In this document: positions 48,442 through 64,000 of the stretch, one piece after another
Layout: every line of letters starts with the position of its first letter
How positions within the stretch are numbered: the first letter of the stretch is position 1
From: an uncultured Verrucomicrobia subdivision 3 bacterium
GTDB taxonomy: Bacteria; Verrucomicrobiota; Verrucomicrobiia; Limisphaerales; UBA11358
Length of the DNA: 64,000 bases
Assembly: GCA_903889895.1 (NCBI GenBank)
Contig: CAISYZ010000089.1
Span: forward strand, 5,274 to 69,273
Direction: 5' to 3'
The notes under the pieces: model-generated
What the model was told of the DNA's origin: nothing
What the model saw: only the letters and a program-made list of their open reading frames with translations
Databases searched by the model: none
Program-made: the position numbers and the translations under genes

Positions 48442-49641
48442 TCAACCGAGCCGCGGCAAAACCCGTTGGCAAATCGTCTGCCCGATGGCCAGCGACGCGG
48501 TCGCGGCCGGTGACGGCGCGTTGATGACGTGCAACATGCCCGGCGCTTCCACGAAATGAAAATCTTCGACCAGCTTACCATCCGGCGTCATTGCTTGCGC
48601 CCGCACGCCAGCGCCGCCCGGTTCGATGTCTTCCGTGCGGATTTCCGGCACCAGCTTTTGCAGCGAGCGCGTGAACTCGGCGCGTGAAAGTGAGCGGCGA
48701 ATTTCATAGCCACAGAGACTTGGATATTTCGCCAGGAATTTCCACAGGCCGGGAAAGGACAGTGACTCCACAAAATCTCGCAGATTAAAATCCGTCCATT
48801 TGTAGCCTTCGCGCGCGAAGGCCAGCACCGCGTTCGGCCCGGCCTCGATGCCACCGTGGATGAGTCGAGTAAAATGCACGCCGAGAAACGGGAACTTCGG
48901 ATCAGGCACCGGATAAATCAAATTGCGGACGAGGTGCTGCCGCTCCTTTTTGATGACATAATACTCGCCGCGAAACGGGACGATTTTGGCCGTCGGCTTT
49001 TGCCCGGATATTTTGACCACCCGGTCAGCATGCAATCCGCCGCACGCGACCACAAATTTTGCGCCGAAATTTCCGGCGGAAGACTCCACTACTTTCTTAA
49101 CGCCGGCGGAAATTATTTTTTCAACGCATGCGTTAAGCTTGATTTCTCCGCCCGCTTTGCGGATGAGTTCGCCGAGCTTTTCGCAGACGGCGGGATAATC
49201 CACGATGCCTTCCTGTGGCACATGAATCGCAGCGAGGCCGGCGGCATGCGGCTCGATTTCTTTGATTTGCTTCGGATTCAATTTGCGCAACCCTTGCAAG
49301 CCGTTGGCGTTGCCACGCGTCCAAAGGTTTTCCAAACGCTCCAGCTCGTTTTGCTCCGTGGCGACGACAATTTTTCCACACTGCTCATGCGCGATGCCAT
49401 GTTCGCGGCAAAACGCTACCATCTGTTGCAAGCCCTGCACGGCGCAGCGCGCTTTTTCTGAGCCGGGTTTGTAATAAAGTCCCGCGTGCAACACACCGCT
49501 ATTGTTGCCGGTCTGATGTGCGGCGAGCTTGGATTCTTTTTCGAGCAGCAGAATTTTCAATTGCGGCCTCGCCTCCAAAAGTCGATACGCCGTCGCCAAA
49601 CCAACAATCCCGCCACCCACAATGACCGCGTCGTATTTCAT
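48442..49641 (-). CDS. lhgO: L-2-hydroxyglutarate oxidase-like FAD-dependent oxidoreductase
   Basis: 399 aa, with 'YDAVIVGGGIVGLATA' and 'NSGVLHAGLYYKPGSEKA'. Confidence 0.8.
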   Translation of the reverse strand: MKYDAVIVGGGIVGLATAYRLLEARPQLKILLLEKESKLAAHQTGNNSGVLHAGLYYKPGSEKARCAVQGLQQMVAFCREHGIAHEQCGKIVVATEQNELERLENLWTRGNANGLQGLRKLNPKQIKEIEPHAAGLAAIHVPQEGIVDYPAVCEKLGELIRKAGGEIKLNACVEKIISAGVKKVVESSAGNFGAKFVVACGGLHADRVVKISGQKPTAKIVPFRGEYYVIKKERQHLVRNLIYPVPDPKFPFLGVHFTRLIHGGIEAGPNAVLAFAREGYKWTDFNLRDFVESLSFPGLWKFLAKYPSLCGYEIRRSLSRAEFTRSLQKLVPEIRTEDIEPGGAGVRAQAMTPDGKLVEDFHFVEAPGMLHVINAPSPAATASLAIGQTICQRVLPRLG

Positions 49642-50813
49642 TTATTCTTGCCGTCTTTGGACAGGAAGCCGACGGCCATCGCCTTGCCGTCACTGGCGAC
49701 CATACCGAGGAAGCGGAATAGCCGACGGAAAAAATTCAACTCAGGCCAGGCTATCAGGACTTCTTTTGCGAGTTTGTCTGCTTCGGAATTTTTACCAAGC
49801 GCGCGGAGACATTCCACCTTCATGTCCTGTGCCTGCCGCACGCGCAGATTTGACATTAGTGTGGCGTCAATAAATTTCAACGCCGCTTCGTATTTCTTGT
49901 CGGCGATACGCTGCTGCGCGTAGCCGAGCATCTGCGCGACGGCGGCAGCCTCTTTTTGGAAATATGCCGGGTTAAATGCGCGCCGTTCTTCCGGCGTGTG
50001 CAGCGTGAAGCGCTCCTCCTGAAACACCGCGTAGAGGTCGGAAAACTTATCTTGGGATTTTTCCAGTTCGGCGGCGCGCTGCTCCATTTTTTCCAAAGCG
50101 GTCTTTTTGCTGTCCGGGTCAAGGTTCATGGCATTAATCAATTTTTTGGCGGAGTCCTTACGCTCGTCCAGCGCGAGTTGAAAAAATCGCGCCCAGAAAG
50201 GCAGGTCGCGCATCCGCCGGGTTTTGCCCTTGCCGCCAATAGGCCGAACCACAATCGGCAGCCACGCATAGCGCCCGGCCATTTCGCCAATCTGGTGAAC
50301 CCAGCGGTCGTCATACCAAAACGGAAAGTGTCCGCAGAACAATGACTGCAAAGTCTCCAGCCAGTTCCAGCCGAAGACTGGATAGGTGCAGGTGTCGGCC
50401 GTCATCGGATCGTGCGGGCTGGCGAGAAAAATACCGTCGGGAAATGTTGCGGCGGTCTCGCGGAGAATGTTATCCCAGCCCGGCGTGTCGAAGCGAACGT
50501 CGTCGCCCAGCACCATAAAAACTTCCGCCGTGCGACCGGAAACCTCCCAGAGAATCTGCTGCATCTGGCCGAGGCCGGAAGTCTGCTGGCCGATGTGCCA
50601 GTGCAGTTGCACGCCCGCGTCGTTCAAAGTTCCGTCAGCAATCGCCTTGCGCGTGACGGCGTCGTCTTCGTCAACGTAGAGCCAGAGGGAAACTTTGTCT
50701 TTTTGGACCGTGTGCTGTTTCAGCGCGGTGAAAACTTCCGCGAGCATGTGCGGCCGCCCGCGCGTGGCCATGATGAGGCAGATTTCGCCGCGATGGATCT
50801 GCGCCGGATTCAT
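49638..50813 (-). CDS. GT-A-like putative glycosyltransferase with a C-terminal helical (TPR-like) extension
   Basis: The ATG at 50813 forms an ATGA overlap with the upstream stop. 'CLIMATRGRP', 'LYVDEDD' and 'GDDVRF' are reminiscent of the GT-A DxD fold. This is a weak call. Confidence 0.45.
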   Translation of the reverse strand: MNPAQIHRGEICLIMATRGRPHMLAEVFTALKQHTVQKDKVSLWLYVDEDDAVTRKAIADGTLNDAGVQLHWHIGQQTSGLGQMQQILWEVSGRTAEVFMVLGDDVRFDTPGWDNILRETAATFPDGIFLASPHDPMTADTCTYPVFGWNWLETLQSLFCGHFPFWYDDRWVHQIGEMAGRYAWLPIVVRPIGGKGKTRRMRDLPFWARFFQLALDERKDSAKKLINAMNLDPDSKKTALEKMEQRAAELEKSQDKFSDLYAVFQEERFTLHTPEERRAFNPAYFQKEAAAVAQMLGYAQQRIADKKYEAALKFIDATLMSNLRVRQAQDMKVECLRALGKNSEADKLAKEVLIAWPELNFFRRLFRFLGMVASDGKAMAVGFLSKDGKNK

Positions 50814-51760
50814 GCGTCGGCAAATTTGCGCCGGTCTTTCACGGCGTCGTAATTTTTTGCATACCATGCCACGGTGCGGCGGATGCCAGGCGCGAGTTCG
50901 TGGTTCATTACGATGCCATATTTTTCGCGGAGCTTGGTTGCATCTACAAATTTTTCCTTCGCGCCGGTATAACGGCTGGAGTTGAAAACCACCTTGCCCT
51001 GATAGCCCGCCGCTTCGCACACGGTCAACGCCAGCTCGCGAATCGTTTTACCGCGACCAGGCGCGAGATTGACGATGTCGCGTTCCAATTTCGGCGCAAG
51101 CTCCAGCAGGCTGCCAACAAAATCTTTCACGTCGGCCAAGTCGCGGACCTGTGTGCCGTCGCCCCAGATTTCCACTTCCGATAGATTCATTTTCACCGCT
51201 TTGACAAAGCGGCCGATGAGCGCTGACGGAACATGCGCGGTGGCTTCGTTGAAATCATCGTCCTCGCCATACATCGCGGGTGGGATGAGATAATTTCCAT
51301 TCAGTTTGAACTGGTCGTTGTAAGCGAGGATGCCGGTGTAAAGCATCCGCTTGGTCGCGCCGTAGGAATAAACGCTGCCGTGAATAGCCCCGTCAAAAAT
51401 CTTGTCTTCCGTCATCGCCTGCGCCGAGCTGGGATACGCACACGATGCCCCGAGTGCGATGAACTTTGCCTGCGGAATAGATTGCCGCCACGCTTCGAGC
51501 GTGTGGTTGTGGATGAGATTGTTGATGTAAAACTGCTCGGCCGTGTGCTTGGCGGGAAACTCGCCCGCTGCCTGAAAGCTGGCAAGGTGGATGATGAGCG
51601 TGGCGTCGCGGTGCGCGGAAAAAACCGCCTCGGCGTGTTCCCAGCGGGTTAGATCAAACTGCCGTTTGCCAAAAGCAAAATGGGGGATGCCGCGCGCAGT
51701 TAATTCCTGCTGCAAATGTCTGCCAACAAAACCTGTGCCGCCGGTGATGAGAACTTTCAT
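50810..51760 (-). CDS. GDP-L-fucose synthase family SDR (Fcl/ColC-like NDP-4-keto-sugar epimerase/reductase)
   Basis: 316 aa, with 'VLITGGTGFVGRHL', 'GASCAYP', 'YSYGATKRM' and 'PPAMYGEDDDF'. Confidence 0.75.
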   Translation of the reverse strand: MKVLITGGTGFVGRHLQQELTARGIPHFAFGKRQFDLTRWEHAEAVFSAHRDATLIIHLASFQAAGEFPAKHTAEQFYINNLIHNHTLEAWRQSIPQAKFIALGASCAYPSSAQAMTEDKIFDGAIHGSVYSYGATKRMLYTGILAYNDQFKLNGNYLIPPAMYGEDDDFNEATAHVPSALIGRFVKAVKMNLSEVEIWGDGTQVRDLADVKDFVGSLLELAPKLERDIVNLAPGRGKTIRELALTVCEAAGYQGKVVFNSSRYTGAKEKFVDATKLREKYGIVMNHELAPGIRRTVAWYAKNYDAVKDRRKFADA

Positions 51761-53298
51761 GCAACACAGGTCGGTTCAATCGCCAAGCAATTTGCGTTTG
51801 AGCTTGATGCTTGCCATTGCCTCGACATTTTTGCGCTGCTGCGGGCCGAAAGTTTTTTCCACCGACTGTAAATAAACCGGATTCGTGAATAAGTGCGCCA
51901 TGCCTCGTCGCGGAATTTCAGCACCTGCGCAGCGGATAGGTGTTTGGTTGGCAGCGGCTCGCTGTCATAGGAAAGAAATCCATAGCCGCTCGGTGAGGAG
52001 GGCAGTTTCCAGCCGTTCGCCTTGGCCGTGTAATAAAGCGGACTGCCGGGCAAAGCCTGGCACGGATACATGTTGGCCATTTCCGTATTCAGTTCCAGCG
52101 CGAGGTCGAGTGTCTGCTGCATCGTCTCATGCGTGTCCTCTGGGAACCCAAAGATGTAGTTCGAAATGACATACATGCCGGATTCACGGACGGTCTTGAT
52201 GACTTCGCGGATGTTGACGTCCTGAAAGCTACCCTTCGAAACCTCACGGCGGACGGTTTGGTTGCCGGCTTCGACACCCAGCGCGAGCCAGTTGATGCCG
52301 GCCTTGCGGAATTTTTCGAGATACTGCGGCCGCACTGTATCAATCCGTGAATAAGTCCACATCCGCAAATCGAGCTGCCGTTCAATGAGACCATCCAGCA
52401 AAGGCTCGTAGTAATTCTTGTTAAGGAAAAACATCTCGTCCGATACGCGAATGGTTTTTGCGCCCATCGAGGCAAGCTTTTCGAATTCCTTCACCATGAA
52501 CTGCGGCGACCAGAATCGCATGTTCGGTGAGTTAGCGGAGACGACACCATCCGCATTGTCCGTGCGGTTTACGATATTGATCATGCAGAAGTCGCACTTG
52601 AACTTGCAGCCTAGAGACGTGTAAATCGCGGCGAACGGCGTGCGCAAATCATGGTTGAACTCCGCGTGCCAGAAATGCGCGCGATACAAGTCGAGCGGCT
52701 TGTTTTTATAGGGCAGCAAATCCCATGCGTAGCCCGGCAAGTCGGTGTCCATCCGTTCATTCGGAACGACCATCTCCGGCGGATTCAAGACGGGCACGCC
52801 GTTTTGCTTGTGGCCGATACCCTTGACTTTATCCAAGCTGGAAACCAAATCCGTCCGCAGCAAGTTTTGCAGCGCATAGACGCCCTCGTTCAGCAAAATG
52901 AAATCCACTTCCGGCAGCGCAATTACTTCCATTGGCAGCGCGCTGGTGTGCGAGCCGACGAAGCAAGTTTTTGTGTTGGGATGCGCTGCTTTTAGTTTTC
53001 GGGCGAGAGAAGTCGCGCCGATCATGTTGGTCGTGCCGGAGTTCGGGTTTTGTCCGTAAACCACAAAGCATATGAGCCGCGCAGGCATTTCACTGATGCG
53101 CTGGACCGATTGCTCTTCCGATAGGCGTTCCGCGCCACAGTCAAGTATGTTTACTCCGAACCCTTGCGAGCGGCAGGCTTGCGCGAGCAGCAGTGCCCAC
53201 GTAGGTGGTTCAATCGCCGAGAAATCTTTGCTTAAGTCTTGGTAAGCCTGCGCTGATGAGTCCGCGTTGACAAACAGGACGTCGAGGGGGCGGTTCAT
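51757..53298 (-). CDS. B12-binding-domain radical SAM enzyme (class B, candidate C-methyltransferase)
   Basis: 513 aa. The N-terminal cobalamin-binding Rossmann region includes 'VLFVNAD...PPTWALLLAQ'. The radical SAM cluster motif 'GCKFKCDFC' (CX3CX2C) is present. Confidence 0.85.
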   Translation of the reverse strand: MNRPLDVLFVNADSSAQAYQDLSKDFSAIEPPTWALLLAQACRSQGFGVNILDCGAERLSEEQSVQRISEMPARLICFVVYGQNPNSGTTNMIGATSLARKLKAAHPNTKTCFVGSHTSALPMEVIALPEVDFILLNEGVYALQNLLRTDLVSSLDKVKGIGHKQNGVPVLNPPEMVVPNERMDTDLPGYAWDLLPYKNKPLDLYRAHFWHAEFNHDLRTPFAAIYTSLGCKFKCDFCMINIVNRTDNADGVVSANSPNMRFWSPQFMVKEFEKLASMGAKTIRVSDEMFFLNKNYYEPLLDGLIERQLDLRMWTYSRIDTVRPQYLEKFRKAGINWLALGVEAGNQTVRREVSKGSFQDVNIREVIKTVRESGMYVISNYIFGFPEDTHETMQQTLDLALELNTEMANMYPCQALPGSPLYYTAKANGWKLPSSPSGYGFLSYDSEPLPTKHLSAAQVLKFRDEAWRTYSRIRFIYSRWKKLSARSSAKMSRQWQASSSNANCLAIEPTCVA

Positions 53299-53302
53299 AA
53301 TT

Positions 53303-54520
53303 TCAAATTGAATTCAGCAGTTCGCAGAGCGCCTTGATTCGATCGGTTGCCAAATCTGGATAATTACCGATGTAAGCGCCGAAGAAATGGACGTGATTGA
53401 CCTGCGGATAATCTTCCGCGCAGTCGAACTCGCGGCGCAGAAATGGCTGGCGCAATTGGTTGCCGCCACCAGACAGACCGCGGCGGAATTCAATCTTGCG
53501 TTCGCGCAACTTGGCTTCGATGCGATCCCACAAAGCTTGGTTTGCTTCGCGCAGAACGAGCGTGAAAGCGTAGTTCACGCTACCTTCGCGGTCAAAGTTG
53601 GTGTAAAACTTTTTCGGGTCGAGGTTGTCGAGAAAGACGTTTTGATTGCGCATGCGCTTTTCGTTGTTCGCGTCGAGGCGTTTCAACTGCGCGCGACCGA
53701 GAACGGCGTTGAGTTCCGTGCTGCGGACGTTGTAAGCGGGGAACGCGAAGATAAAATCAGGATTCAAATCCGGGAAATCAGATTTGTATTTTGCCTTCAA
53801 TGCGTCGTCCTTGCTCTCGCGCACCATGCCGTGCGAGCGCATCATGCGGAGCGTTTCGTAAAAATCAGAATCGTTCGTGCAAACCATGCCGCCTTCGATG
53901 GTGCTCATGTGGTGCGCGTAGTAGAACGAGAAGTTTGACGCGAAACCGAGGCTGCCCAGACGCTTGCCTTGAAACGTCGCGCCGTGCGATTCGCAAACGT
54001 CTTCGATGATCGGTATGTTGCGCTTCTGGCATTCGTCAATCAACGTCTGGTCGAGCGCATTGAAACCGAGGACGTGCGTGATGAATACGGCGCGCGTGGA
54101 GGAATTCAATTCCGCCAAAACCTGTGTGATGTCCATGCCGAGCGTGCGCGGATTGATGTCCACGAACACGGGATCAAAACCGGCTTGAATGACGGAGGCG
54201 ATGTCGGAAACCCACGTGAGCGTCGGCACGATGACTTCGCCGGCGCCAAATTTTTCCTTGAGCGCAGCCATCGTGATCTGGTTCGCGGAGGAACCAGAAT
54301 TCACGAACACGCTGTGCTTCACGCCGAGCCATTCGGACCATTCCTGCTCGAACGCGATGACGTTCTTCGATTGGGTGAGAATCGGGTCTTCCTGTTTGAG
54401 AAATTCAATCAGCGCATCGAGGTCTTCGCGCGGAATGTTATTCTGCATCAAGGGCCAGTCGCGCAAATTCGCGGCGGTCACGGGTTCACTTTTCGCTGTA
54501 GTAGTCGCCATATTCAACAA
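53303..54520 (-). CDS. DegT/DnrJ/EryC1 fold PLP/PMP enzyme of the ColD/E1 3-dehydratase type
   Basis: 405 aa. 'VNSGSSANQITMAAL' is present. The active-site segment 'SFYYAHHMSTIEGG' has His where aminotransferases carry the Schiff-base Lys. The start (54520 or 54511) overlaps the upstream gene by about 26-35 nt. Confidence 0.7.
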   Translation of the reverse strand: MLNMATTTAKSEPVTAANLRDWPLMQNNIPREDLDALIEFLKQEDPILTQSKNVIAFEQEWSEWLGVKHSVFVNSGSSANQITMAALKEKFGAGEVIVPTLTWVSDIASVIQAGFDPVFVDINPRTLGMDITQVLAELNSSTRAVFITHVLGFNALDQTLIDECQKRNIPIIEDVCESHGATFQGKRLGSLGFASNFSFYYAHHMSTIEGGMVCTNDSDFYETLRMMRSHGMVRESKDDALKAKYKSDFPDLNPDFIFAFPAYNVRSTELNAVLGRAQLKRLDANNEKRMRNQNVFLDNLDPKKFYTNFDREGSVNYAFTLVLREANQALWDRIEAKLRERKIEFRRGLSGGGNQLRQPFLRREFDCAEDYPQVNHVHFFGAYIGNYPDLATDRIKALCELLNSI

Positions 54521-55022
54521 TGATTGTGCTTTTACCGTCCGTGCGCGTCAGCGCCTTTTCGTAGGCCGGAAAAATATGTTCAGGTTCGTCGAGGCGGATG
54601 ACCTCGATGTTTTTACACATCAGCCGGAAAGCTTCTGTGAAATCGCCGACATGCTGGTGCTGCGGGTGCAGCGGACGTTCCGAGCCGATGCCGGTGCGGA
54701 TGATAACCTTGGGCTGGTAGCCGCCGTCGGACATCGCGGAAAGTTTGTCGAGGTGGCTAACCACCTGGCTGACGGCGCAGAGCAAAAAGTTCCAGCGCGG
54801 ATAGATGCTTACGGGCACCAAGCCATTCAGCGCCATGCCGATGGACATGCCCATCTGCAAATCTTCCGTCACGGGCATCTCCAAAAGTTTTGCGCGATCC
54901 ACATTTTTTAGCGTGTTCGTCATCGCTGTGCCCGCGCAGGCCACCGCCTGGCCGAGAAACAGCGTGCGCGGATCGCGCGCGAGGAATTCCATCGAGCGGC
55001 TAAGTTCGTCAAAATACTTCAT
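54486..55022 (-). CDS. Minimal TPP-enzyme subunit, E1-beta / transketolase pyrimidine-binding-domain-like
   Basis: 178 aa. 'LLEMPVTEDLQMGMSIGMALNGLVPVSIYPRWNFLLCAVSQVV' matches the E1-beta Pyr-domain pattern. It lacks the usual C-terminal domain. Confidence 0.65.
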   Translation of the reverse strand: MKYFDELSRSMEFLARDPRTLFLGQAVACAGTAMTNTLKNVDRAKLLEMPVTEDLQMGMSIGMALNGLVPVSIYPRWNFLLCAVSQVVSHLDKLSAMSDGGYQPKVIIRTGIGSERPLHPQHQHVGDFTEAFRLMCKNIEVIRLDEPEHIFPAYEKALTRTDGKSTIIVEYGDYYSEK

Positions 55023-55034
55023 GCGAAAATAAAA

Positions 55035-55720: not shown

Positions 55721-56797
55721 TCAGATGTTGGCACCCGGCGCGCTGGCGTCCAGTTCACGGAAGGCCTCAACCTGTTGCTTATCCCGCGCCTTGTCGTGTG
55801 CGGAGTAATCCTCCTCCAGCTCATGAAAAATCACCTGGCTGCCGCCAAACTCAAACTTGAACGGCACATGAATCAACCGGCTCAGCTGCTTCTTGATTTT
55901 GGCGTGCTTCGCTGGTGCCGCGAACACGAGCAAAAATCCGCCTCCGCCCGCGCCGAGCAGCTTTCCGCCCAGCGCGCCGGCGGAGCGCGCCGCCTCGTAG
56001 GCCGCATCCACCTGATCATTGGAAATCTTGTCGCTTAAACTACGTTTCGCGAGCCACGCTTCGTGCAACAACTCGCCGAATGGCGCGAGGTCTTGGCCGC
56101 TGTTCAGGATTTCGCAGCCTTTGTCCACGCAGTCACGCATCTTGTTCAGCAGCGCCACGCGGTCGGCGAGGCTCGGCACAAAACTTGTGGCTACCGTGGC
56201 CGCCGTGCGCTTGATGCCGGTGTAAAAAAGCATCAGATGCGAATTCAATTCTTCAATTCGCTCGTGGGTCAACGTCATCGGTTGCACGGAAAATTCGCCG
56301 TTCTGGAAAAAGCTGATGCGGTTCAATCCGCCGTAAGCCGCGCAAACTTGATCCTGCGAACCGACCATTTCTTTCAGCATCTCCTGCTCAATGTGGATGC
56401 TTTCCGCCGCGAGCTGCTTTTTGCCAACCGCCCGGCCCTGCAAGGCATAAAGTGCGTTGAGCAAACCGACGGTAAACGCCGAACTGGAACCCATGCCGCT
56501 GCGGCCCGGCAGGTCGCCGTCGTGATGGATTTCCACACCGCGCGCGAGCTTGAGAAAGCGCAGGGTCTCGCGGGCCGAGGGATGCTGGATTTCCTCCGGC
56601 TTCTGGCAGTTCTCGATTTTGGAATAAACGACGCGGATGCGATGCTCGAAAAACGGCGGCAGATAGCGGCACGTCAGGTAGCAGTATTTGTTGATGGTGG
56701 TCGCAAGCACTGCGCCGCCATGCTGCCGATACCACGCCGGATAGTCCGTGCCGCCGCCGAAAAACGAAATGCGAAATGGGGTTCTGCTGATAATCAT
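55721..56797 (-). CDS. GHMP-family sugar kinase (HddA / D-glycero-D-manno-heptose-7-phosphate kinase-like)
   Basis: 358 aa. The N-terminus is 'IISRTPFRISFFGGGTDYP', the GHMP motif is 'PGRSGMGSSSAFTVGL', and 'LGAGGGGFLL' is present. Confidence 0.8.
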   Translation of the reverse strand: MIISRTPFRISFFGGGTDYPAWYRQHGGAVLATTINKYCYLTCRYLPPFFEHRIRVVYSKIENCQKPEEIQHPSARETLRFLKLARGVEIHHDGDLPGRSGMGSSSAFTVGLLNALYALQGRAVGKKQLAAESIHIEQEMLKEMVGSQDQVCAAYGGLNRISFFQNGEFSVQPMTLTHERIEELNSHLMLFYTGIKRTAATVATSFVPSLADRVALLNKMRDCVDKGCEILNSGQDLAPFGELLHEAWLAKRSLSDKISNDQVDAAYEAARSAGALGGKLLGAGGGGFLLVFAAPAKHAKIKKQLSRLIHVPFKFEFGGSQVIFHELEEDYSAHDKARDKQQVEAFRELDASAPGANI

Positions 56798-56857
56798 AGC
56801 TGCGACTCAAAAGTGTTGAACCGAAAACTACTGGCTGCGATTTATCGCCACAAGTTG

Positions 56858-57385
56858 TTAAATGCTTAATTTGCCCCGCGCCACCGCCGCCAGCAGTGCC
56901 GCCCAGTTGCCGGCGCTGTAGAAATCCGGTTCCTGTAGGAGCGATTTCAAATCCCTTGTCCAGAGCACACAGTTCAAGCCAGCTTCAATCTCCGCCGCCG
57001 GTGCGGGAGTGGCATTGCCGGCGAAATAACACCAAATCCGGTTTGTAAACCGCCCGGGCGAGGGCGATATGTTGGCGAGCAATTCAAATTTTTCCGCGCC
57101 GTGGCCGGTCTCTTCCAGTAACTCCTTCCGCGCAGCCTGTTCCGGCGTCTCGTCTTGCTCAACGTGGCCGGCGGGCAGTTCCAAAGTCATTTTCGCGACC
57201 GCATGGCGGAACTGGCGCACGAGCAGCAGTTCCTTATTCTCCGTCACCGCGATGATGCAGACAAAGTCCGCCGAATTGATGGAGTAGTTTGGATGTTTTC
57301 CACTGCCCGCCGCTTCCTGCACTTGAAACCAGGGCGTGGCATAAACGGTTTTTCGCTCTGGGAATTTTTCGCACATACGATTCAT
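56858..57385 (-). CDS. NUDIX hydrolase
   Basis: 175 aa, with the Nudix box 'GHVEQDETPEQAARKELLEETG'. Confidence 0.8.
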   Translation of the reverse strand: MNRMCEKFPERKTVYATPWFQVQEAAGSGKHPNYSINSADFVCIIAVTENKELLLVRQFRHAVAKMTLELPAGHVEQDETPEQAARKELLEETGHGAEKFELLANISPSPGRFTNRIWCYFAGNATPAPAAEIEAGLNCVLWTRDLKSLLQEPDFYSAGNWAALLAAVARGKLSI

Positions 57386-58122
57386 TCCGCGAAGTGCGCG
57401 CGGTTTTGTCGGATGAAGCCTGCCGCCTGCGGCAGCGATTCCGGCGTGCCGATGTCGAGGAACGGCGCTTCGCTCAAAACAGCTTTTAATTTTGCGCCGC
57501 CGCTGATGAGCGCGGGAAAAACATCCAGTTCAAAACTCAATGGCAATTTCGCCGGGAATTTTTCCAGCGCGGCAGCGCGAAAAAGATACACGCCGGCGTT
57601 GATGTCGCCCGCGCCGGGTTTCTTTTCATTGAAGCCGGTCAAATCACCATCAGCATTCGCCGAAATCGTGCCGAAGCGCGCGGCGTCGGTCATCGGCACA
57701 CCGAGGATTGCACCATCATTTTCCGGATGATCAAGTGAATTGAAAAACTTTTGCAACGGCGCGACGACAAGTGAATCGCCATTTAAAACAATCCACGCGG
57801 CAGGTTTTTCTTTGACAGTGTTTGCGGCATTTAGAAATCCCCCCGCCGTGCCAAGCGGTGTGGTTTCGGGAACGCAAGTGACGCGGATATTTTTCACTGG
57901 CTGCGGCGCGAAATGTTTTCCCACCGTTTCCGCGAGGTGGCCGGTGGAGAGAATCACATTGCGAATGCCCTGCGTCGCTAGATAGCGCACGACCCATTCG
58001 ACGAAGGGCTTGCCGTTAACCGGAGCCATCGGCTTCGGCAACTCACCTAGCAGATGCTTGATGCGGGTGCCGAACCCGCCGGCGAGGACGACGGCGGTGA
58101 TTTGTTCGGGACGGACGCTCAC
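57382..58122 (-). CDS. Sugar-1-phosphate nucleotidyltransferase (HddC/ManC-like)
   Basis: 'AVVLAGGFGTRIKHLLGELPKPMAPV' is present. I chose the GTG start at 58122, because the ATG-defined ORF would overlap the upstream gene by about 80 nt. Confidence 0.75.
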   Translation of the reverse strand: MSVRPEQITAVVLAGGFGTRIKHLLGELPKPMAPVNGKPFVEWVVRYLATQGIRNVILSTGHLAETVGKHFAPQPVKNIRVTCVPETTPLGTAGGFLNAANTVKEKPAAWIVLNGDSLVVAPLQKFFNSLDHPENDGAILGVPMTDAARFGTISANADGDLTGFNEKKPGAGDINAGVYLFRAAALEKFPAKLPLSFELDVFPALISGGAKLKAVLSEAPFLDIGTPESLPQAAGFIRQNRAHFAE

Positions 58123-58127
58123 AAGCG

Positions 58128-59060
58128 TCAGACGTTGGAGTAAATCGTGTTCCGCAAAATCGTGAACCCCTTGATGAGTTCCACGATGCCGCGATCCAAG
58201 CCCCATTCCGGTTTAAAGCCGGTGCCGGCGATGCGCGCGTTGCTCACGATATAGTCGCGCTTGTCCGGGTCTTCGCCGATGGGTGCTTCGACATACACAA
58301 ACTTCGGCAAATGTTTTTGAATCACCGCGCAGAGTTCAAGCTTGGAGAGGTTCGCGTCGTCGAGGCCAACGTTGTAGGGCTTGCCTTTCATTGACTCGAA
58401 ATTGGCGATGCCGTGCGTGAAGGCGCGAGCCACGTCGCGGATGTGAATATAATTGCGTTTGAAATGGCCTTCAAATATCAGCACCGCACGGTCATGAAGC
58501 GCGCGATAAACAAAATCGTTCACCAGCAAATCCAGCCGCATGCGCGGCGAGCAGCCGAACACGGTGGCGAGGCGAAAGCTGATGCTGTTCTCGCGGGACA
58601 AAACGGCTTCCTCGGCTTTCACCTTGGTGACGCCATAAGTTGAGATCGGGCGTAACGGCGTTTCTTCGGTGCAGAATTTTCCTTTTTCGCCGACGCCATA
58701 GCCGCTGTTCGTGACGGGCATGATAACCCATTGCTGTTTGCCCGCGAGCCGGCAGATCATTTCCACCGCGTGCTGATTGGTGGAAGTGGTTGCGAGCGAA
58801 TCTGTGTTGCACAGCGGCACGCCGACGAGCGCGGCGAGCGGGATTATGAGGTCGTGCTTGGCGATGAGTGGTTTCACAACCGATTCTTCGCGGCAGTCGC
58901 CGCGCACAACGGAAAATTTCTCGTTGCCGCAGACGTCCATCAGCGAGTTCTGGTTGAAGTAAAAATTGTCCAGCACGGTGACTTCGTGACCTTGTGCGAG
59001 CAAGGTGGGCGTGAGGACGGAGCCAAGATAACCGGCACCGCCGGTGATGAGTATTTTCAT
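58128..59060 (-). CDS. NAD-dependent epimerase/dehydratase (extended SDR)
   Basis: 310 aa, with 'ILITGGAGYLGS' and the catalytic 'YGVTKVKAE'. Confidence 0.8.
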   Translation of the reverse strand: MKILITGGAGYLGSVLTPTLLAQGHEVTVLDNFYFNQNSLMDVCGNEKFSVVRGDCREESVVKPLIAKHDLIIPLAALVGVPLCNTDSLATTSTNQHAVEMICRLAGKQQWVIMPVTNSGYGVGEKGKFCTEETPLRPISTYGVTKVKAEEAVLSRENSISFRLATVFGCSPRMRLDLLVNDFVYRALHDRAVLIFEGHFKRNYIHIRDVARAFTHGIANFESMKGKPYNVGLDDANLSKLELCAVIQKHLPKFVYVEAPIGEDPDKRDYIVSNARIAGTGFKPEWGLDRGIVELIKGFTILRNTIYSNV

Positions 59061-59070
59061 AGGTTAAAAT

Positions 59071-61755
59071 TTATTTAGTGGCGGGAGTGTGTGTTTTTCG
59101 CTTCAGAAAAACAAGCAAACCTGCTAGGGCGGCAGCCGTGAACAAGCCGGCGAGAGTGACATAAAACGGCCGGTTGGGCAGGGTGAAATCGAATTTAACG
59201 AGGTGACGTCCGGGCGGCACCTGCACGCCGCGCATAAGGTAGTTGCAGCGCAGCAGTCCCGCTGGCTGGTCATCCACCGTGACGTGCCAGCCGGAATCGT
59301 ATTTGTCATTGACTAGCAAAACTGACGGGACGGTGGCATTCGCCTCAAAGACAATTGTCTTCGGCGAGTAGCTTTTGAATTCCACGGTGCCGGTCGCATC
59401 GTTGGTGGCCACGGCGGCCAAGCCGGGTTGGGGCGTGGAAATCAAAACGGTTTTGGCGGGGTCGAATTGCAGGTCGGCCAGGGTTTTCAAATTCGCCTGG
59501 TCATTGGTGTTAACCAGCCAGTTGGCATAAAGTTTTGCACGTGGCAGGGCACCGGTGAATTCAATGAGCGCGTAGCGGCCGTTTTCATTCGGCACGGCGG
59601 TGAGTTCTTCCAACCGTTGTGGCTGAAGGATGCCGGGCTTGGGCACGACTTCGAAACGCTGCACGAAATGAAACCGGTGCTGCACGGGGTCGATCTGCTG
59701 GTTCATCACCTCGAGATAGCCTGCGGGGCCGAGCAGGTAGCGGGTGTTGGATAATTCCCAACGGCGGGCCAAAAGCGGCGCGGAGTCCGCCGTGCCACGC
59801 GGTGAAAGGGCTTCAAGGTAGGACTTTAAATCTTCCGGCATGCGCGGCATCTGGATGATGTCGAGGCACTGGATGTTGTAATAAGGGAAGTGATGCTGCA
59901 TCCATTCGATGCGATAAAGCTGATCGAATAGTTCCATGCCTTCCGGCGCGCGGAAGGGGAGGCCGGCGACGCGGTGTTCATAAGGTTTGTTCCGCAGAAA
60001 ATCCAGAATGGGATTCAGCGAGCCGACCTCGTATTTCTGCTTGTAGTCCCAGTGGACAACATAGGGCAAATCCGCGCGGCTCAAGTCAAACAACATGAAG
60101 CCGCCCAGCAGCAGGCTGCCCAGCCGCACGCGCGAGCCTGAAAAATAACCGGTGATTGTCAACTGCACCAGGAGCAGCGCCACTGCCAGCAGTCCGATGA
60201 ACCAGCCAACTTGGCCGAGACTGAACGCGGCGATTTCCCGCGCGAAATTTTCATCGGGATAACCCACTTTTTGGAGGTAGGTGACGAGGGCGTTTTGCTC
60301 GCTTGCAAAAATCAACCAGCCCAAAACGCTCGCCATAAATACACCCGCGCAACTCACCGTCCATTTGCGCTCAAAGGCGCTGGCGCGTGCCCACCAGGTG
60401 CCGGTAGGTTTGGATTTCGTCTCCGGTTGCCGTTGGCTCAAGGCATGAACGCCATAGGCAAACAAAATCACCAATGCCCAGGTGAAGAAAATTAGGAATT
60501 TGGTGGGGTTTCGTATGGTTGAAAAATAGGGCAGCTTGTAAAGCGTCCCATAAAACATCGGCGCAAACCGTCCCCAGGCAAGCACAAGGGAAATGACCAG
60601 CACAGCCGTGAAAAACCAGATTATCCTTTTTTGCCGGTCGGAATAGGGCGAGTTCTTTTTTCGCATTGATTGGGCAATTGCCCACGCCACCAGCAGACAG
60701 ACGAGAACGCCGCAATAATCTCCACCACCGGTGAAGCGCATAAAGCCTGCCGGCAGTTGCCCCGGCGCGCCGCTGTCAAGGAAACGGTCAAGCGTCGGAT
60801 CCCGGCCGATGCCGCCCCAATAAACGCCGCCTTCGAACCATTTTTGAGCCAAGGGCATCATGTCCTTGGGCGTATCCATTTTGTAGCCAAAGATGCCGGG
60901 GACAAAAATAGTTACCGTTTCGAGCTTGGGTAGACTCCATTGCGTGGCCCAGTCCCAGTGTTGCAACTTGGTTTCGCTGTCCTGCGCGGTTCCGGCGATG
61001 CCCTGGATCTGCGTTCCCACCAGTGAAACGACGGTTTGCGTGGCGATGAATCCAGCAAAGATGGCAATGATTGCGATGCGGCCAAAACCCGCAGCCATCC
61101 GGGTGAACAGCGCCCCTTCATAACTGATGATGGCGTCATAGAATACAAACGCGGCCACAAAGATGCTGAAAATGGCGCCAATGTCCGCCGCTTCCATGAC
61201 ATTGAGGCCGACAGCAAAACCGGCCAGCGCCGTCTTGATCCAACGTTCCAAGCGGGGCGTTGTCGAATCGTTAGAAATCACCAACGCCAGCGCCAGAAAA
61301 ACCATGCTGAACGCATCCAGTTGGCCGGACACCCCCCAACAGGCGGTTGAGAAATAAGCGGAGTTTAAGGCGGTCGCCAATGCGCCCATGGTGCAGGCGA
61401 ACTGGGAAAGTTTGAGCTGATAAAACAAAACCCACGCGCTCATGCCGAGAATCAGTAGAGTGACCGGCGCGAAAAATTTGGCGTAGCCCAGCGGTCCCAA
61501 AATCCACCGGCAAATGCCGTTGATGTCAATCGGCCACGCACCGCCGCCGCCGCCGACGTCATTCAAATCATCCCAGACACCGGAGAAAGCCGCCGGCAAC
61601 TGGCACCAGGCGGCATTTTGCGTGCCCAGCGGACCGTCGTTGGAAAAATGCACATAATCCGGTAGAAAGCTCCGGTAAAACAAGGCGGTCAGGATGACCG
61701 CCAGCAGCAGCAGGATTTTCATCACTGAGGCGCGAGCGGATGTAGCAAAGGGCAT
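59071..61755 (-). CDS. Large polytopic membrane protein, YfhO-like (putative glycan or glycolipid glycosyltransferase)
   Basis: 894 aa (or the start at 61722). It has more than 12 TM segments. The C-terminal periplasmic region plus final TM ('YDSGWHVTVDDQPAGLLRCNYLMRGVQVPPGRHLVKFDF') is typical of YfhO-type proteins. Confidence 0.6.
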   Translation of the reverse strand: MPFATSARASVMKILLLLAVILTALFYRSFLPDYVHFSNDGPLGTQNAAWCQLPAAFSGVWDDLNDVGGGGGAWPIDINGICRWILGPLGYAKFFAPVTLLILGMSAWVLFYQLKLSQFACTMGALATALNSAYFSTACWGVSGQLDAFSMVFLALALVISNDSTTPRLERWIKTALAGFAVGLNVMEAADIGAIFSIFVAAFVFYDAIISYEGALFTRMAAGFGRIAIIAIFAGFIATQTVVSLVGTQIQGIAGTAQDSETKLQHWDWATQWSLPKLETVTIFVPGIFGYKMDTPKDMMPLAQKWFEGGVYWGGIGRDPTLDRFLDSGAPGQLPAGFMRFTGGGDYCGVLVCLLVAWAIAQSMRKKNSPYSDRQKRIIWFFTAVLVISLVLAWGRFAPMFYGTLYKLPYFSTIRNPTKFLIFFTWALVILFAYGVHALSQRQPETKSKPTGTWWARASAFERKWTVSCAGVFMASVLGWLIFASEQNALVTYLQKVGYPDENFAREIAAFSLGQVGWFIGLLAVALLLVQLTITGYFSGSRVRLGSLLLGGFMLFDLSRADLPYVVHWDYKQKYEVGSLNPILDFLRNKPYEHRVAGLPFRAPEGMELFDQLYRIEWMQHHFPYYNIQCLDIIQMPRMPEDLKSYLEALSPRGTADSAPLLARRWELSNTRYLLGPAGYLEVMNQQIDPVQHRFHFVQRFEVVPKPGILQPQRLEELTAVPNENGRYALIEFTGALPRAKLYANWLVNTNDQANLKTLADLQFDPAKTVLISTPQPGLAAVATNDATGTVEFKSYSPKTIVFEANATVPSVLLVNDKYDSGWHVTVDDQPAGLLRCNYLMRGVQVPPGRHLVKFDFTLPNRPFYVTLAGLFTAAALAGLLVFLKRKTHTPATK

Positions 61756-61986
61756 AGTAAAAGTTTCTGAAAAAAAGTGTCTGCGTTATTGTCTTTAATG
61801 TGGCCCACTATTTCCTATGACCCGCCGTTAGCGTATCTGTTCAAAAGCGCTCGGCCGCAGCCTTTAAAATAAAAGTGGCTGGATAATTTGGACGAAAACG
61901 GAAAATCCGCAATCCTTTTGCGCCTGCCGGCCACATTTTCCTTTTCGCCAGCGGCGCTATCGGCTTAAATCCGCGTTCCATTCATA

Positions 61987-62712
61987 ATGAAAAGCCATGA
62001 GATTCAACTGCTGTTGAGCGAAAGTAATAAGGATTGGGTGCTGGCCAATCCGGGCACCGTCAGCCCGCGAATCGTCAAAGCCCGGCAGATTTTTTCGCGG
62101 ATGAATCCCGGGCAGGTCATATTGGACGTGGGCTGTGCCGACGGCGGCATCCTCAAACCGTTGGTGGGTCCCCACGAAATTCACGGGGTCGAGATTACGC
62201 CTTGGTTGGTTGAATTGGCGCTTAAAAATGGTGTGAAGGCTGTCCGCCACAACATCGAGGCCGAGCCGTTGCCATATGCAAACGCACGTTTTGACGCCGT
62301 TTTTTGCGGCGAAACCATTGAGCATCAGGTGGACACCGACTGGCTGATGTTCGAGATTAACCGCGTGCTCAAACCCGGTGGCAAACTCGTGTTGACCTTT
62401 CCCAATATCCGCACTTTATTGGGTTTGGCCATGATGCTGTTCTTTGATCTGCCGCCGATGTATGCCGCGCGCTACCGTTCGGCGCATTTCCGTGATTTCA
62501 CCCTGCGCCTCATCAAGGTGGTGCTCGCGGCGCACGGTTTCCGGGTGGAACGCACACAGGGCAGCGCGTTTTATCTGCCCAAGCTGAACGAATTCTGGTC
62601 GCCCGTTGCCACCTATTTTCCCTCCTGGTCGCACACGGTCATTGTTGAGGCAGTCAAGGAATCAGAATCTGTTTATTCCAAGGAATCCGTGCTGCCCGTG
62701 CGGCTCTACTGA
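61987..62712 (+). CDS. Class I SAM-dependent methyltransferase
   Basis: 241 aa, with 'ILDVGCADGG' and 'FDAVFCGETIEH...LKPGGKLVLTFPN'. Confidence 0.8.
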   Translation: MKSHEIQLLLSESNKDWVLANPGTVSPRIVKARQIFSRMNPGQVILDVGCADGGILKPLVGPHEIHGVEITPWLVELALKNGVKAVRHNIEAEPLPYANARFDAVFCGETIEHQVDTDWLMFEINRVLKPGGKLVLTFPNIRTLLGLAMMLFFDLPPMYAARYRSAHFRDFTLRLIKVVLAAHGFRVERTQGSAFYLPKLNEFWSPVATYFPSWSHTVIVEAVKESESVYSKESVLPVRLY

Positions 62713-62713
62713 C

Positions 62714-63583
62714 ATGGGAATTGACATCAATTCTGCAAAGTTCCTGGTTTCGACGCGTAAACGCGGCGTAAATTTCGGAGATGTTCTGATGATTGGTCGT
62801 CAGGACTTGAACGTCTATCCCGCCAAAATGCGCGGATTGCTGGCTGCGGCTGGTTACTCCGGCGAGCTTTTCGCGCCCGGCGCAGCGGACAGCGGATTTG
62901 GTGAGCCGGTCTTCAAAGCTTTGGGAGCGCGAAGTATTTCCTCGCTGGACGCCTCTGCCTTTGAAGGCGCGGAATATGTCCACGACCTCAACCAGCCGGT
63001 TGACGGCCAGCTCAAGCAGAAATTCGACTTCGTGTTCGATGGCGGCACTCTGGAACACGTATTCAATTTCCCGGTGGCGTTGCAAAACTGCATGGAAATG
63101 CTGCGTCCCGGCGGTAGCTTTATCACCCACACCTGTGCAAACAACTGGTGCGGCCACGGCTTCTACCAGTTCAGCCCGGAACTTTTTTACAATGTTTTGA
63201 GCGCGGAGAACGGCTTTGTCGTCGAGCGTATGATTCTTCACGTCGTCGGCCCTTACAACCGCTGGTATGAAGTCGCCAGCCCGCAGTCCATTCGGTCGCG
63301 CGTGGAGCTCTTCAACAGTTTCCCGTTGCAGCTTTTGGTTCACGCTCGGCGCACGCAAGTCGTCCCGCTCTTCGCCAAAACCCCGCAGCAGGGCGATTAC
63401 ACGGTGCGCTGGGCCGGGCAAAAGGCCGGCGAAGGCAAGGCGCTCGCGGCCACGCGCCCCGCGCTTGCCAAGGTGTTACCCGGCGTGGCTCGGCTGGGCA
63501 ACGTGCTCAAGAACGGCTGGGCCATGTGGCACGGCAACTCACTCGGCAACCGGAAAAAATTCCGGCCCGTCTCTAAAGATTGA
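62714..63583 (+). CDS. Methyltransferase-like protein
   Basis: The ATG at 62714 lies 1 nt after the upstream stop. 'FDFVFDGGTLEHVFNFPVALQNCMEMLRPGGSFI' is present. Confidence 0.55.
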   Translation: MGIDINSAKFLVSTRKRGVNFGDVLMIGRQDLNVYPAKMRGLLAAAGYSGELFAPGAADSGFGEPVFKALGARSISSLDASAFEGAEYVHDLNQPVDGQLKQKFDFVFDGGTLEHVFNFPVALQNCMEMLRPGGSFITHTCANNWCGHGFYQFSPELFYNVLSAENGFVVERMILHVVGPYNRWYEVASPQSIRSRVELFNSFPLQLLVHARRTQVVPLFAKTPQQGDYTVRWAGQKAGEGKALAATRPALAKVLPGVARLGNVLKNGWAMWHGNSLGNRKKFRPVSKD

Positions 63584-63639
63584 CCTTCAAGGATTAATTT
63601 TCCCATGCATCACGGCCACCAAATTGTCGCCGGTTTGAA

Positions 63640-64000
63640 ATGAGCGAAAAGCGTTCAGCCATTGTCACCGTGGCGTTCGGTCACTCCACCGAACATCTTG
63701 ACCACACGTTCTCCAGCTTTGCCATCAACCGTGGCGTGCCGCTGCACGCGTTCATCATCGGCACGGAGTTGCCGAAGCGACGGCTGGAAAACATTGAATA
63801 TCACCTCGTCGCGCCCGTGCCGGATTTTTCGCATCCGCTCCGCGAAATCTATTTCCGCCGGCTGGAACTCATTGACCGGCTCGACGTGGATTTTGCGCTG
63901 ACGGTGGATTCCTACGATGTGCTGTGCCTCCAGCCGCTGCCGCCGTTTGAAAACCTGCTGGGCGACGCCGATGTGGCCGCGTGCGTAGAGCATCAGGGCA
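63640..64000 (+). CDS. Partial CDS running off the window (putative glycosyltransferase-like protein)
   Basis: The frame is open from the ATG at 63640 to the window end, with GC3-rich codon usage. 'AIVTVAFGHS...' and 'LTVDSYDVLCLQPLPP' are present. This ORF is not in the supplied track because it has no stop. Confidence 0.4.
   Translation, partial: MSEKRSAIVTVAFGHSTEHLDHTFSSFAINRGVPLHAFIIGTELPKRRLENIEYHLVAPVPDFSHPLREIYFRRLELIDRLDVDFALTVDSYDVLCLQPLPPFENLLGDADVAACVEHQG

Follow-up and report, generated by a model that had tools for sequence, protein, structure and literature searches.

A widespread envelope-glycan operon that probably makes a heptose-derived, C-branched 3-deoxy sugar

Introduction

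Operons that tailor nucleoside diphosphate (NDP)-linked sugars are known, and several of them resemble parts of a 12-gene operon that we analyse here. The operon lies in a stretch of 64,000 nucleotides (hereafter the window) of an uncultured Verrucomicrobia subdivision 3 bacterium of the Limisphaerales (GenBank assembly GCA_903889895.1, contig CAISYZ010000089.1, positions 5,274 to 69,273 of the forward strand). Among the closest described systems is the capsular GDP-heptose pathway of Campylobacter jejuni (PMC10680097). The two have in common HddA/HddC-type activation, a C4-dehydrogenase (54% identity), a 3-dehydratase dependent on pyridoxamine 5'-phosphate (PMP) and an Fcl-like reductase. In this pathway, which also has C4-reductases of the Cj1428 type, the NADH tightly bound by the C4-dehydrogenase Cj1427 is re-oxidised by 2-oxoglutarate, which yields L-2-hydroxyglutarate. 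When combined in vitro with a C3-dehydratase, Cj1427 gave GDP-D-glycero-3-deoxy-4-keto-heptose (m/z 616.08), presented as a novel compound (PMC10680097). However, the C. jejuni pathways have no thiamine pyrophosphate (TPP) enzyme, radical S-adenosylmethionine (SAM) enzyme, L-2-hydroxyglutarate oxidase (LhgO) or Nudix hydrolase. In addition, the 3-dehydratase of HS:5 naturally acts after a 4,6-dehydratase and leads to 3,6-dideoxy sugars; the 6-hydroxy-3-deoxy product arose only in an artificial enzyme mix.

The GDP-L-colitose pathway (GMD, ColD and ColC) resembles the operon in its GDP-linked substrates, its ColC/Fcl-like epimerase-reductase and its ColD-type dehydratase, in which histidine replaces the catalytic lysine. 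The operon would differ in its substrate, a heptose oxidised at C4 by a dehydrogenase, and in its additional TPP and radical SAM steps. In yersiniose biosynthesis, a TPP enzyme gene stands beside those for a 3-deoxy-4-keto NDP-sugar, as it does here (YerE/YerF; PMC9306805). Two-subunit TPP enzymes of the E1 alpha/beta family, which puts two-carbon branches on keto-sugars, include AviB1/B2, Pau11/12 and KbDH-alpha/beta, and the operon's pair shares their thiamine diphosphate (ThDP) motif and catalytic glutamate (PMC12247030, PMC4753412). Unlike these, the operon's subunits have about 60% and 55% of the normal length, and the beta subunit lacks the C-terminal domain. Moreover, known E1-type branching concerns the 6-deoxyhexoses of actinomycete antibiotics, whereas this operon belongs to a Gram-negative envelope-glycan context and would use a heptose. 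Finally, HpnJ (bacteriohopanetetrol cyclitol ether) and the calditol synthase Cds join a B12-binding domain to a radical SAM core, like the enzyme of the operon, and build a cyclopentane ring from a sugar (PMC9092360). In the operon the substrate would be an NDP-sugar and not a lipid-linked one, and ring closure is hypothetical.

A preliminary description of this DNA had not recognised the combination of genes as a described pathway, and we found no paper that joins these elements or describes it. As far as we could find, this pathway, its minimal E1 pair and its coupling to LhgO have not been described.

Results

The operon and its proposed product

The operon runs on the minus strand from 61755 down to 48442 as a single transcriptional series of 12 genes. 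The 14 open reading frames (ORFs) listed in the preliminary description are all in place, 11 of them on the minus strand (49638-61755), two on the plus strand and a partial one that runs on the plus strand to the end of the window, and Pfam and NCBIfam agree with the domains assigned to them. Its lower limit of 49638 overlooked the LhgO gene, which overlaps the gene of a GT-A-fold glycosyltransferase by 4 nucleotides and extends the operon by one gene. The clustering is far above chance expectation, and synteny of the core extends over more than 40 loci in several phyla. The earlier view that the cluster builds a glycan is supported.

We propose, with a probability of about 0.6, that the operon makes a nucleotide-activated, heptose-derived 3-deoxy C-branched higher sugar, which would be attached to an acceptor in the cell envelope. 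The starting compound would be D-glycero-D-manno-heptose 7-phosphate from the cell's lipopolysaccharide (LPS) heptose pathway. An HddA-like kinase would phosphorylate it at C1, a 7-phosphatase would be supplied from elsewhere in the genome, and the sugar would be activated to GDP-heptose. A Cj1427-like short-chain dehydrogenase/reductase (SDR) would then oxidise C4 and keep the C6 hydroxyl, its bound NADH reducing 2-oxoglutarate to L-2-hydroxyglutarate, which LhgO would return to 2-oxoglutarate. From this product a ColD-type enzyme would remove the 3-hydroxyl, with conversion of glutamate to 2-oxoglutarate and ammonia, to give GDP-3-deoxy-4-keto-heptose. The minimal E1 alpha/beta pair would decarboxylate pyruvate and place the two-carbon unit on the C4 ketone as a 4-C-acetyl branch, and an Fcl-like SDR would epimerise the sugar, reduce it, or both. 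The B12-binding radical SAM enzyme would form one more carbon-carbon bond; we favour a bond from C7 to the branch carbonyl, which would produce a caryose-like cyclopentane, and rate C-methylation by the same enzyme about as likely. The GT-A enzyme and a YfhO-like membrane protein would transfer the sugar, and the Nudix hydrolase would trim the NDP-sugar pool.

These steps differ in their support. The identities of the enzymes for the steps from activation through 3-deoxygenation are supported by homology and synteny, and C4 oxidation followed by 3-deoxygenation has been demonstrated in vitro with the Campylobacter enzymes. The addition to the C4 ketone is suggested by the chemistry of YerE and of E1 alpha/beta enzymes together with the fixed gene order, and we infer the roles of the Fcl-like SDR and of the radical SAM, GT-A, YfhO-like and Nudix proteins.

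The C4-dehydrogenase and its link to LhgO

The decisive result concerns the SDR encoded at 58128-59060. It aligns without gaps over 308 residues to PDB 6VO6, which we take to be Cj1427 of C. jejuni (54% identity, E = 2.5e-111, 375 bits), whereas the best dehydratase structure in the PDB search reaches at most 61 bits. The YxxxK motif is present as YGVTK. RmlB-type 4,6-dehydratases carry an Asp-Glu acid/base pair in the motif TDE; at this site the protein has TNSGYG, as does 6VO6. By these comparisons the enzyme is a Cj1427-like C4-dehydrogenase and not a 4,6-dehydratase. Since it is Cj1427-like and has TNS in place of TDE, C4 would be oxidised with the C6 hydroxyl kept. Hence, the later intermediate would be a 3-deoxy-4-keto-heptose rather than a 3,6-dideoxy sugar. 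The dehydrogenase is 50-94% identical in related loci (labelled L001, L006 and so on).

The last gene of the operon (48442-49641) encodes a protein that matches the NCBIfam equivalog NF008726, LhgO, with 554 bits against a cutoff of 299 (residues 3-392). Its gene, which in the window is translationally coupled to the cluster, accompanies the cassette in three arrangements. It closes the operon in the window and in L001, L006 and L012; it directly follows the C4-dehydrogenase gene in L042 (60% identity); and an annotated lhgO (35% identity, 328 bits, above the equivalog cutoff) lies in the cluster on plasmid pDMC1 of Solidesulfovibrio magneticus. A Cj1427-type enzyme yields L-2-hydroxyglutarate as its by-product, so that LhgO ties in with this mechanism, and from the gene linkage we propose that it closes the 2-oxoglutarate cycle.

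Heptose activation and 3-deoxygenation

The kinase has HddA as its best NCBIfam match (142 bits, equivalog cutoff 600), and among solved structures its closest relatives are 3K85, 4N3O and 4USK, which are heptose kinases (HddA/WcbL). The nucleotidyltransferase matches mannose-1-phosphate guanylyltransferase with 148 bits and HddC with 120 bits (HddC cutoff 300), both below their cutoffs. When the window was searched with GmhA and GmhB query sequences, neither protein was found, as had been noted before. However, a gene for a GmhA-like SIS protein stands inside the pDMC1 operon of S. magneticus, which confirms a heptose origin. The kinase relatives, the guanylyltransferase scores and this gene bear out the heptose-type activation of the preliminary description. 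The Nudix protein, which had been likened to Gmm/WcaH, has its best family match in the NudE type (71 bits, below cutoff). Its gene also occurs in L004, L006, L007, L041, L042, Azospirillum and S. magneticus, and was not found in the L001 locus; it is a recurrent accessory gene of the cassette.

For the DegT-family protein, the best solved relative is ColD (E = 1.3e-44, residues 45-402). Histidine occupies the column of the catalytic lysine (YYAHHMSTIEGG against FYSHHIATMEGG in ColD, where AHH aligns with SHH), a column identified by the solved ColD mutants H188N and H188K. We found no E1-type cysteine cluster in the protein and no reductase gene in the operon, which places it in the ColD subtype; what had been described as a ColD/E1-type 3-dehydratase can be narrowed to the former. 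In S. magneticus, a Cys-rich E1-type dehydratase with the pattern CSCPSC...C replaces the ColD type.

The second SDR of the operon reaches 146 of the 500 bits that the NCBIfam GDP-fucose synthase family requires and is thus no orthologue of Fcl. Aligned to E. coli Fcl, it retains the Ser, Cys, Tyr, Lys (YxxxK) and His of the active site. It is probably a C5 (or C3/C5) epimerase and ketoreductase, and an Fcl-like SDR also occurs in the Nitrospira, Azospirillum and Solidesulfovibrio versions of the cassette.

The TPP enzyme pair

The split TPP enzyme of the preliminary description belongs to the E1 alpha/beta family and keeps both the ThDP motif and the catalytic glutamate. Its subunits have 199 and 178 residues, against about 320 (alpha) and 330 (beta) at full length. 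The beta-like subunit consists of the pyrimidine-binding domain, with no C-terminal Transketolase_C domain; aligned to E1 beta of pyruvate dehydrogenase, it retains the cofactor-activating glutamate, in PVTED. Its identity in related loci is 55-93%. Proteins of about 200 residues, with 114 representatives at E <= 1e-30, form a distinct family to which the alpha-like subunit belongs. The ThDP motif G-D-[MG]-x25-[DN]-N is conserved across 68 members of this family, and the window protein has Glu for Asp.

Not all versions of the cassette have the minimal pair. Full-length E1 alpha/beta subunits (318 and 348 residues) are encoded in the verrucomicrobial loci L038 and L043; in L042, also verrucomicrobial, they occur in addition to a minimal pair, and S. 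magneticus likewise has a full-length pair. Because full-length pairs occur with the same radical SAM and ColD-like genes, the minimal pair looks like a derived, trimmed form. The TPP function is thus kept in three forms: E1 pairs of minimal or of full length, and a split transketolase. This replacement of the TPP enzyme and of the dehydratase by other subtypes in some genomes indicates that functions are conserved, beyond the genes themselves.

Fusions of a TPP subunit with pathway enzymes were sought among long homologues, but the extra length of these proved to be inteins or homing endonucleases. A phosphonate pathway, in which a split TPP decarboxylase and an aminotransferase occur, was rejected because it does not fit subunits of the E1_dh/Transket_pyr type and a cluster with no phosphoenolpyruvate mutase. 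Inteins or LAGLIDADG homing-endonuclease domains interrupt some members of the mini-E1-alpha family, namely the distant homologues P0287 and P0291.

The radical SAM enzyme

The radical SAM enzyme has the motif CKFKCDFC (CX3CX2C) and matches the radical SAM (PF04055, 70 bits) and B12-binding (PF02310, 46 bits) families above their gathering scores. The best NCBIfam match is HpnJ, with 112 bits against a cutoff of 578; at about 20% of the cutoff, the enzyme is not a member or orthologue of HpnJ. In three distant orthologues (window, Nitrospira and Solidesulfovibrio), HpnJ is the best family and BchE the next. A sequence search of the PDB gave weak matches only, of which the best is AprD4 (E = 1e-9), and the AlphaFold2 (AF2) model has a mean predicted local distance difference test (pLDDT) of 58.8, too low for a fold search. 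Orthologues are 65-95% identical across phyla.

In the window, the gene has an apparent 1-nucleotide deletion near 51,885-51,890, where a T is missing in ACTTAT[T]TCACG. Residues 1-470 are 94% identical to a homologue of 507 residues, whereas the last 43 residues of the ORF are unrelated to the homologues. A different frame encodes the conserved C-terminus, FTNPVYLQSVEKTFGPQQRKNVEAMASIKLKRKLLGD, and ends in a stop at 51776-51778. This may be either an assembly error or a genuine frameshift at the 3' end. As a consequence, of the ATGA and 4-nucleotide overlaps reported before, the one between the radical SAM and Fcl-like genes is an artefact of the frameshift; the overlap of the LhgO and GT-A genes comes in addition.

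Distribution and variants of the cassette

The mini-E1-alpha gene occurs in 34 genomes in a scan with one genome per species. Limisphaerales and other Verrucomicrobiota carry it with up to 94% identity, which places the organism of the window, and the other hosts include Nitrospira, Spirulina, SAR116, Gammaproteobacteria and Bacteroidota; a tblastn search of plasmids with mini-E1-alpha gave no match. When the window proteins were searched by tblastn, the genes for the C4-dehydrogenase, kinase, nucleotidyltransferase, E1 alpha, E1 beta and ColD-like protein were found to travel together, and the radical SAM gene accompanies this core in about two-thirds of the loci, its product being 65-70% identical across phyla. 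With the radical SAM protein as a guide, five further contigs were sampled, and each has the order E1 alpha, E1 beta, DegT, radical SAM. With the radical SAM enzyme and the Fcl-like SDR included, the core set is found in Verrucomicrobiota, Nitrospira, cyanobacteria, SAR116, Bacteroidota and S. magneticus pDMC1. Conservation of the genome neighbourhood, proposed earlier as a check on the cluster, is seen across many phyla.

The genomic context is one of O-antigen or LPS. In Nitrospira the cassette is followed by Wzm and Wzt, the latter with a Wzt_C domain, an O-polysaccharide export context. Genes of families GT9, GT2 and GT10 lie near other versions, and GT9 genes, of the heptosyltransferase family, flank two of them.

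The fullest version in a cultured organism is that of S. magneticus RS-1 (L045, at 22.5-39.7 kb of the pDMC1 record). There, the genes follow in the order two GT2, radical SAM, Nudix, kinase, E1 alpha, E1 beta, Fcl-like SDR, DegT, C4-dehydrogenase, nucleotidyltransferase, phospholipid-carrier-dependent glycosyltransferase, lhgO and GmhA-like SIS. Insertion sequence (IS) elements flank the cassette on this 58.7-kb plasmid of a magnetotactic host, which suggests horizontal mobility.

Related clusters occur on plasmids of Azospirillum, namely p6 of A. lipoferum 4B (L040) and p5 of A. argentinense Az39 (L044). In these, the gene of a radical SAM enzyme of 40% identity is joined by those of the C4-dehydrogenase, a GHMP kinase, a Nudix hydrolase and an Fcl-like protein. 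In Az39, a split transketolase and a second cobalamin-dependent protein are encoded beside them. Neither cluster has a ColD-like gene, and by their gene content they represent a related pathway with no 3-deoxygenation step. On pSF25509b of Sinorhizobium fredii, genes for the C4-dehydrogenase, the kinase, the transferase and a DegT protein are present, but those for a TPP and a radical SAM enzyme are missing; this cluster was set aside as a different heptose pathway. Closer to the window, L006 (a metagenome-assembled genome of Verrucomicrobia subdivision 3) has a 93%-identical E1 alpha and, within 10 kb, all genes but that of the C4-dehydrogenase. A large, oppositely oriented gene takes the latter's place, so that the dehydrogenase is encoded elsewhere or the pathway differs. 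In another locus (L003, on a 1.8-Mb contig), the cassette is broken into many short ORFs, which looks like frameshift noise of long reads rather than gene decay.

Transfer proteins, gene starts and flanking genes

The GT-A protein has no match in Pfam or NCBIfam. Its 318 homologues, all of about 391 residues, are restricted to Verrucomicrobia and annotated as hypothetical. In an AF2 model built with 24 homologues, the N-terminal domain has a pLDDT of about 90, and the top Foldseek matches in the PDB are GT2 enzymes (E = 4e-7), with nearly all of the top 50 being glycosyltransferases of the GT-A fold, mostly GT2, at probability 1.0. The residues D48xD50D51 and D104D105 are invariant. The modelled structure identifies the protein as a GT-A-fold glycosyltransferase.

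The YfhO-like protein matches Pfam YfhO with 24.5 bits (gathering score 28.5) in its C-terminal part only. It has about 11 hydrophobic segments, then a large soluble region or loop and finally a C-terminal transmembrane segment, a topology compatible with YfhO. It is probably a lipid-carrier-dependent glycosyltransferase of the GT-C type. Homologues adjoin the cassette in L001/L002 and L015, and in S. magneticus the analogous place is held by an unrelated protein annotated as phospholipid carrier-dependent glycosyltransferase. The three-part lipid-carrier glycosylation systems CsbB/GtcA/YfhO, ArnC/ArnT and GtrA/B/C likewise pair a cytoplasmic GT-A (GT2-like) transferase with a large polytopic membrane protein, YfhO-like or GT-C, encoded in one operon. 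In contrast to these systems, no flippase was identified here, and the GT-A protein has neither a membrane anchor nor a Pfam family.

The features are listed in table 1. The start of the GT-A gene at 50813 gives 391 residues, the same as in all homologues. An alternative ATG start of the DegT gene lies at 54511, and the nucleotidyltransferase homologues, of 244-246 residues, suggest a start near 58,120. A scan of 48000-62200 for promoters and terminators gave counts that were not above those of shuffled sequence and was uninformative. The two methyltransferase ORFs on the opposite strand exist as described before, but had been counted in the cluster; by tblastn they have no counterpart in any related locus, and we do not count them as established members. 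At the other end of the window, the hldD gene at 1787-2794 was confirmed, which adds to the evidence for a heptose origin. Directly upstream of it, at 768-1781 (plus strand), lies a gene for a deoxyhypusine/homospermidine synthase-like protein whose matches are all below curated cutoffs.

Table 1. Genes of the operon and of its divergent flank, with positions in the window and the basis of each assignment.
Feature	Position	Strand	Basis
L-2-hydroxyglutarate oxidase (LhgO), last operon gene	48442..49641	-	NCBIfam equivalog
GT-A-fold glycosyltransferase, 391 aa, plus C-terminal helical domain	49638..50813	-	AF2 and Foldseek
Fcl/ColC-like extended SDR	50810..51760	-	Pfam Epimerase
B12-binding radical SAM enzyme	51757..53298	-	Pfam B12-binding and Radical_SAM
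ColD-type PMP-dependent NDP-4-keto-sugar 3-dehydratase (DegT family)	53303..54520	-	ColD similarity, His for Lys
Minimal E1-beta-like TPP-enzyme subunit, 178 aa	54486..55022	-	Pfam Transket_pyr only
Minimal E1-alpha-like TPP-enzyme subunit, 199 aa	55035..55634	-	Pfam E1_dh
HddA-like GHMP kinase, proposed heptose-7-phosphate 1-kinase	55721..56797	-	NCBIfam, solved relatives
Nudix hydrolase	56858..57385	-	Pfam NUDIX
Sugar-1-phosphate nucleotidyltransferase, probably guanylyltransferase	57382..58206	-	Pfam NTP_transferase
Cj1427-like NDP-heptose C4-dehydrogenase (SDR)	58128..59060	-	PDB 6VO6 similarity
YfhO-like polytopic membrane protein, 894 aa, first operon gene	59071..61755	-	weak Pfam YfhO
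Class I SAM methyltransferase, divergently transcribed	61987..62712	+	Pfam Methyltransf_11
Second class I methyltransferase, ATG at 62714	62714..63583	+	weak Pfam methyltransferase matches
Partial ORF, leaves window end; begins MSEKRSAIVTVAFGHSTEHLDH; may be a glycosyltransferase	63640..64000	+	translation only

Discussion

Several other products have to be weighed against the heptose-derived, C-branched 3-deoxy sugar. The preliminary description had pointed to a branched or C-methylated 3,6-dideoxy sugar; such a route would start with a 4,6-dehydratase, as for colitose, ascarylose or yersiniose. The ColD-type dehydratase, the Fcl/ColC-like SDR and the TPP enzyme do parallel the colitose and yersiniose pathways, and the SDR at 58128-59060 matches dTDP-glucose 4,6-dehydratase models with 79 bits (cutoff 365). 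Yet the operon has no 4,6-dehydratase: this SDR is Cj1427-like (375 bits to 6VO6 against at most 61 to dehydratases), its TNS lacks the Asp-Glu pair, and no other candidate dehydratase is present. The linked LhgO, moreover, makes sense only with a C4-dehydrogenase that depends on 2-oxoglutarate, and we regard the 3,6-dideoxy route as largely refuted. It is also very unlikely that the kinase and the nucleotidyltransferase salvage a hexose or other sugar, such as fucose or mannose, instead of activating a heptose. Their scores are well short of the cutoffs (142 of 600 bits for HddA and 120 of 300 for HddC), they also match fucokinase and mannose-1-phosphate guanylyltransferase models, and the window has no GmhA or GmhB, all of which would fit such a substrate. 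Against it stand the three heptose kinases that are the closest solved relatives of the kinase, the C4-dehydrogenase of the GDP-heptose-specific Cj1427 type, the GmhA-like gene within the S. magneticus operon and the GT9 genes at the flanks of two versions. If the substrate is a heptose, the operon might make a heptose analogue of colitose, GDP-3-deoxy-L-heptose; the TPP enzyme and the radical SAM enzyme would then do something else, such as making a non-carbohydrate substituent or acting on the C6-C7 side chain. The Fcl-like SDR has all residues for C5 epimerisation and C4 reduction, and by exactly this route Raushel's group obtained four GDP-3-deoxy-heptoses in vitro (PMC10680097). Among solved structures, the closest to the radical SAM enzyme is that of the diol-dehydratase AprD4, and the side chain of a heptose is a vicinal diol. 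This match is weak, however (E = 1e-9), and all E1 alpha/beta enzymes known from sugar clusters attack a ring ketone (PMC12247030). Furthermore, the invariant order of the E1 alpha, E1 beta, dehydratase and radical SAM genes, and the retention of the TPP function across three non-orthologous types, argue that the TPP enzyme acts on the product of the dehydratase. We consider the colitose analogue improbable.

The remaining alternative keeps the pathway as proposed and changes the last carbon-carbon bond: the radical SAM enzyme would be a class B C-methyltransferase, and the product, lacking a carbocycle, would be a C-methylated 3-deoxy-heptose with an acetyl or hydroxyethyl branch. Methyltransferases make up most of the characterised B12-binding radical SAM enzymes, and models of PhpK-, Mmp10- and RiPP-type (ribosomally synthesised and post-translationally modified peptide) C-methyltransferases match the protein with E = 1e-14 to 1e-20. 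Methylated two-carbon branches are known, for example in everninomicin (PMC12247030). The 40%-identical paralogue in the A. lipoferum cluster, with no TPP gene annotated nearby, also counts in favour of methylation. On the other side, the top family in the three distant orthologues is the carbocycle-forming HpnJ, followed by the cyclase BchE, and in the sampled orthologues the radical SAM gene always adjoins the TPP pair and the dehydratase. Neither point is decisive, and we consider a methylated product somewhat unlikely.

Some observations weigh against the proposed pathway itself. With the exception of LhgO, all family matches fall below the NCBIfam equivalog cutoffs. The assignment of 6VO6 to Cj1427 agrees with the molecule name in the PDB, and no paper confirming it was found. 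The 4-reductase/epimerase site of the Fcl-like SDR is complete, and if this enzyme reduces C4, no ketone would be left for the TPP enzyme. None of the cassettes examined encodes GmhB. The radical SAM gene is frameshifted at its 3' end in the window; the TPP pair occurs with no radical SAM gene in L001, L011, L013 and L035, loci that would make the open branched sugar; and, conversely, no TPP gene is annotated in the stretch examined of the A. lipoferum cluster.

The ring-closing form of the proposed pathway can be compared with caryose, a sugar whose origin was stated to be "currently unknown" (PMC9092360). Each structural feature of caryose may correspond to an enzyme of the cassette: C1-C7 with the 6- and 7-hydroxyls kept, to GDP-heptose and the C4-dehydrogenase; the missing 3-hydroxyl, to the ColD-type enzyme; the tertiary alcohol at C4, bonded to C8 with its C9 methyl, to the TPP-dependent addition of a pyruvate-derived two-carbon unit; C5, inverted relative to D-manno, to the Fcl-like epimerase; and the C7-C8 bond of the cyclopentane, to the B12 radical SAM enzyme. 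The formulae balance exactly (C7H12O6 + C2H4O = C9H16O7, which is caryose). We suggest only tentatively, as a reading that is less likely than not, that the cassette is the biosynthetic route to caryose-type carbocyclic sugars.

If the proposed pathway is correct, it would be the first natural route to 6-hydroxy-3-deoxy-heptoses, which have so far been obtained in vitro with mixes of Campylobacter enzymes. Its stripped-down TPP pair, of about 200 and 178 residues, would extend E1-type sugar branching, for the first time, beyond the antibiotic clusters of actinomycetes. The embedded LhgO suggests that a glycan operon can carry its own recycling step for the co-substrate of the C4-dehydrogenase, which would explain how the cell tolerates the stoichiometric production of L-2-hydroxyglutarate. 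The cassette occurs in ecologically important and mostly uncultured groups, such as Limisphaerales, Nitrospira, SAR116 and cyanobacteria, and its product is probably a common surface sugar that has gone unseen. Should the caryose reading be true, such bicyclic sugars would occur widely in bacterial envelopes, among them those of Verrucomicrobiota, Nitrospira and cyanobacteria. The cassette offers a testable route to caryose-like carbocyclic sugars, with S. magneticus RS-1 as a cultured carrier.

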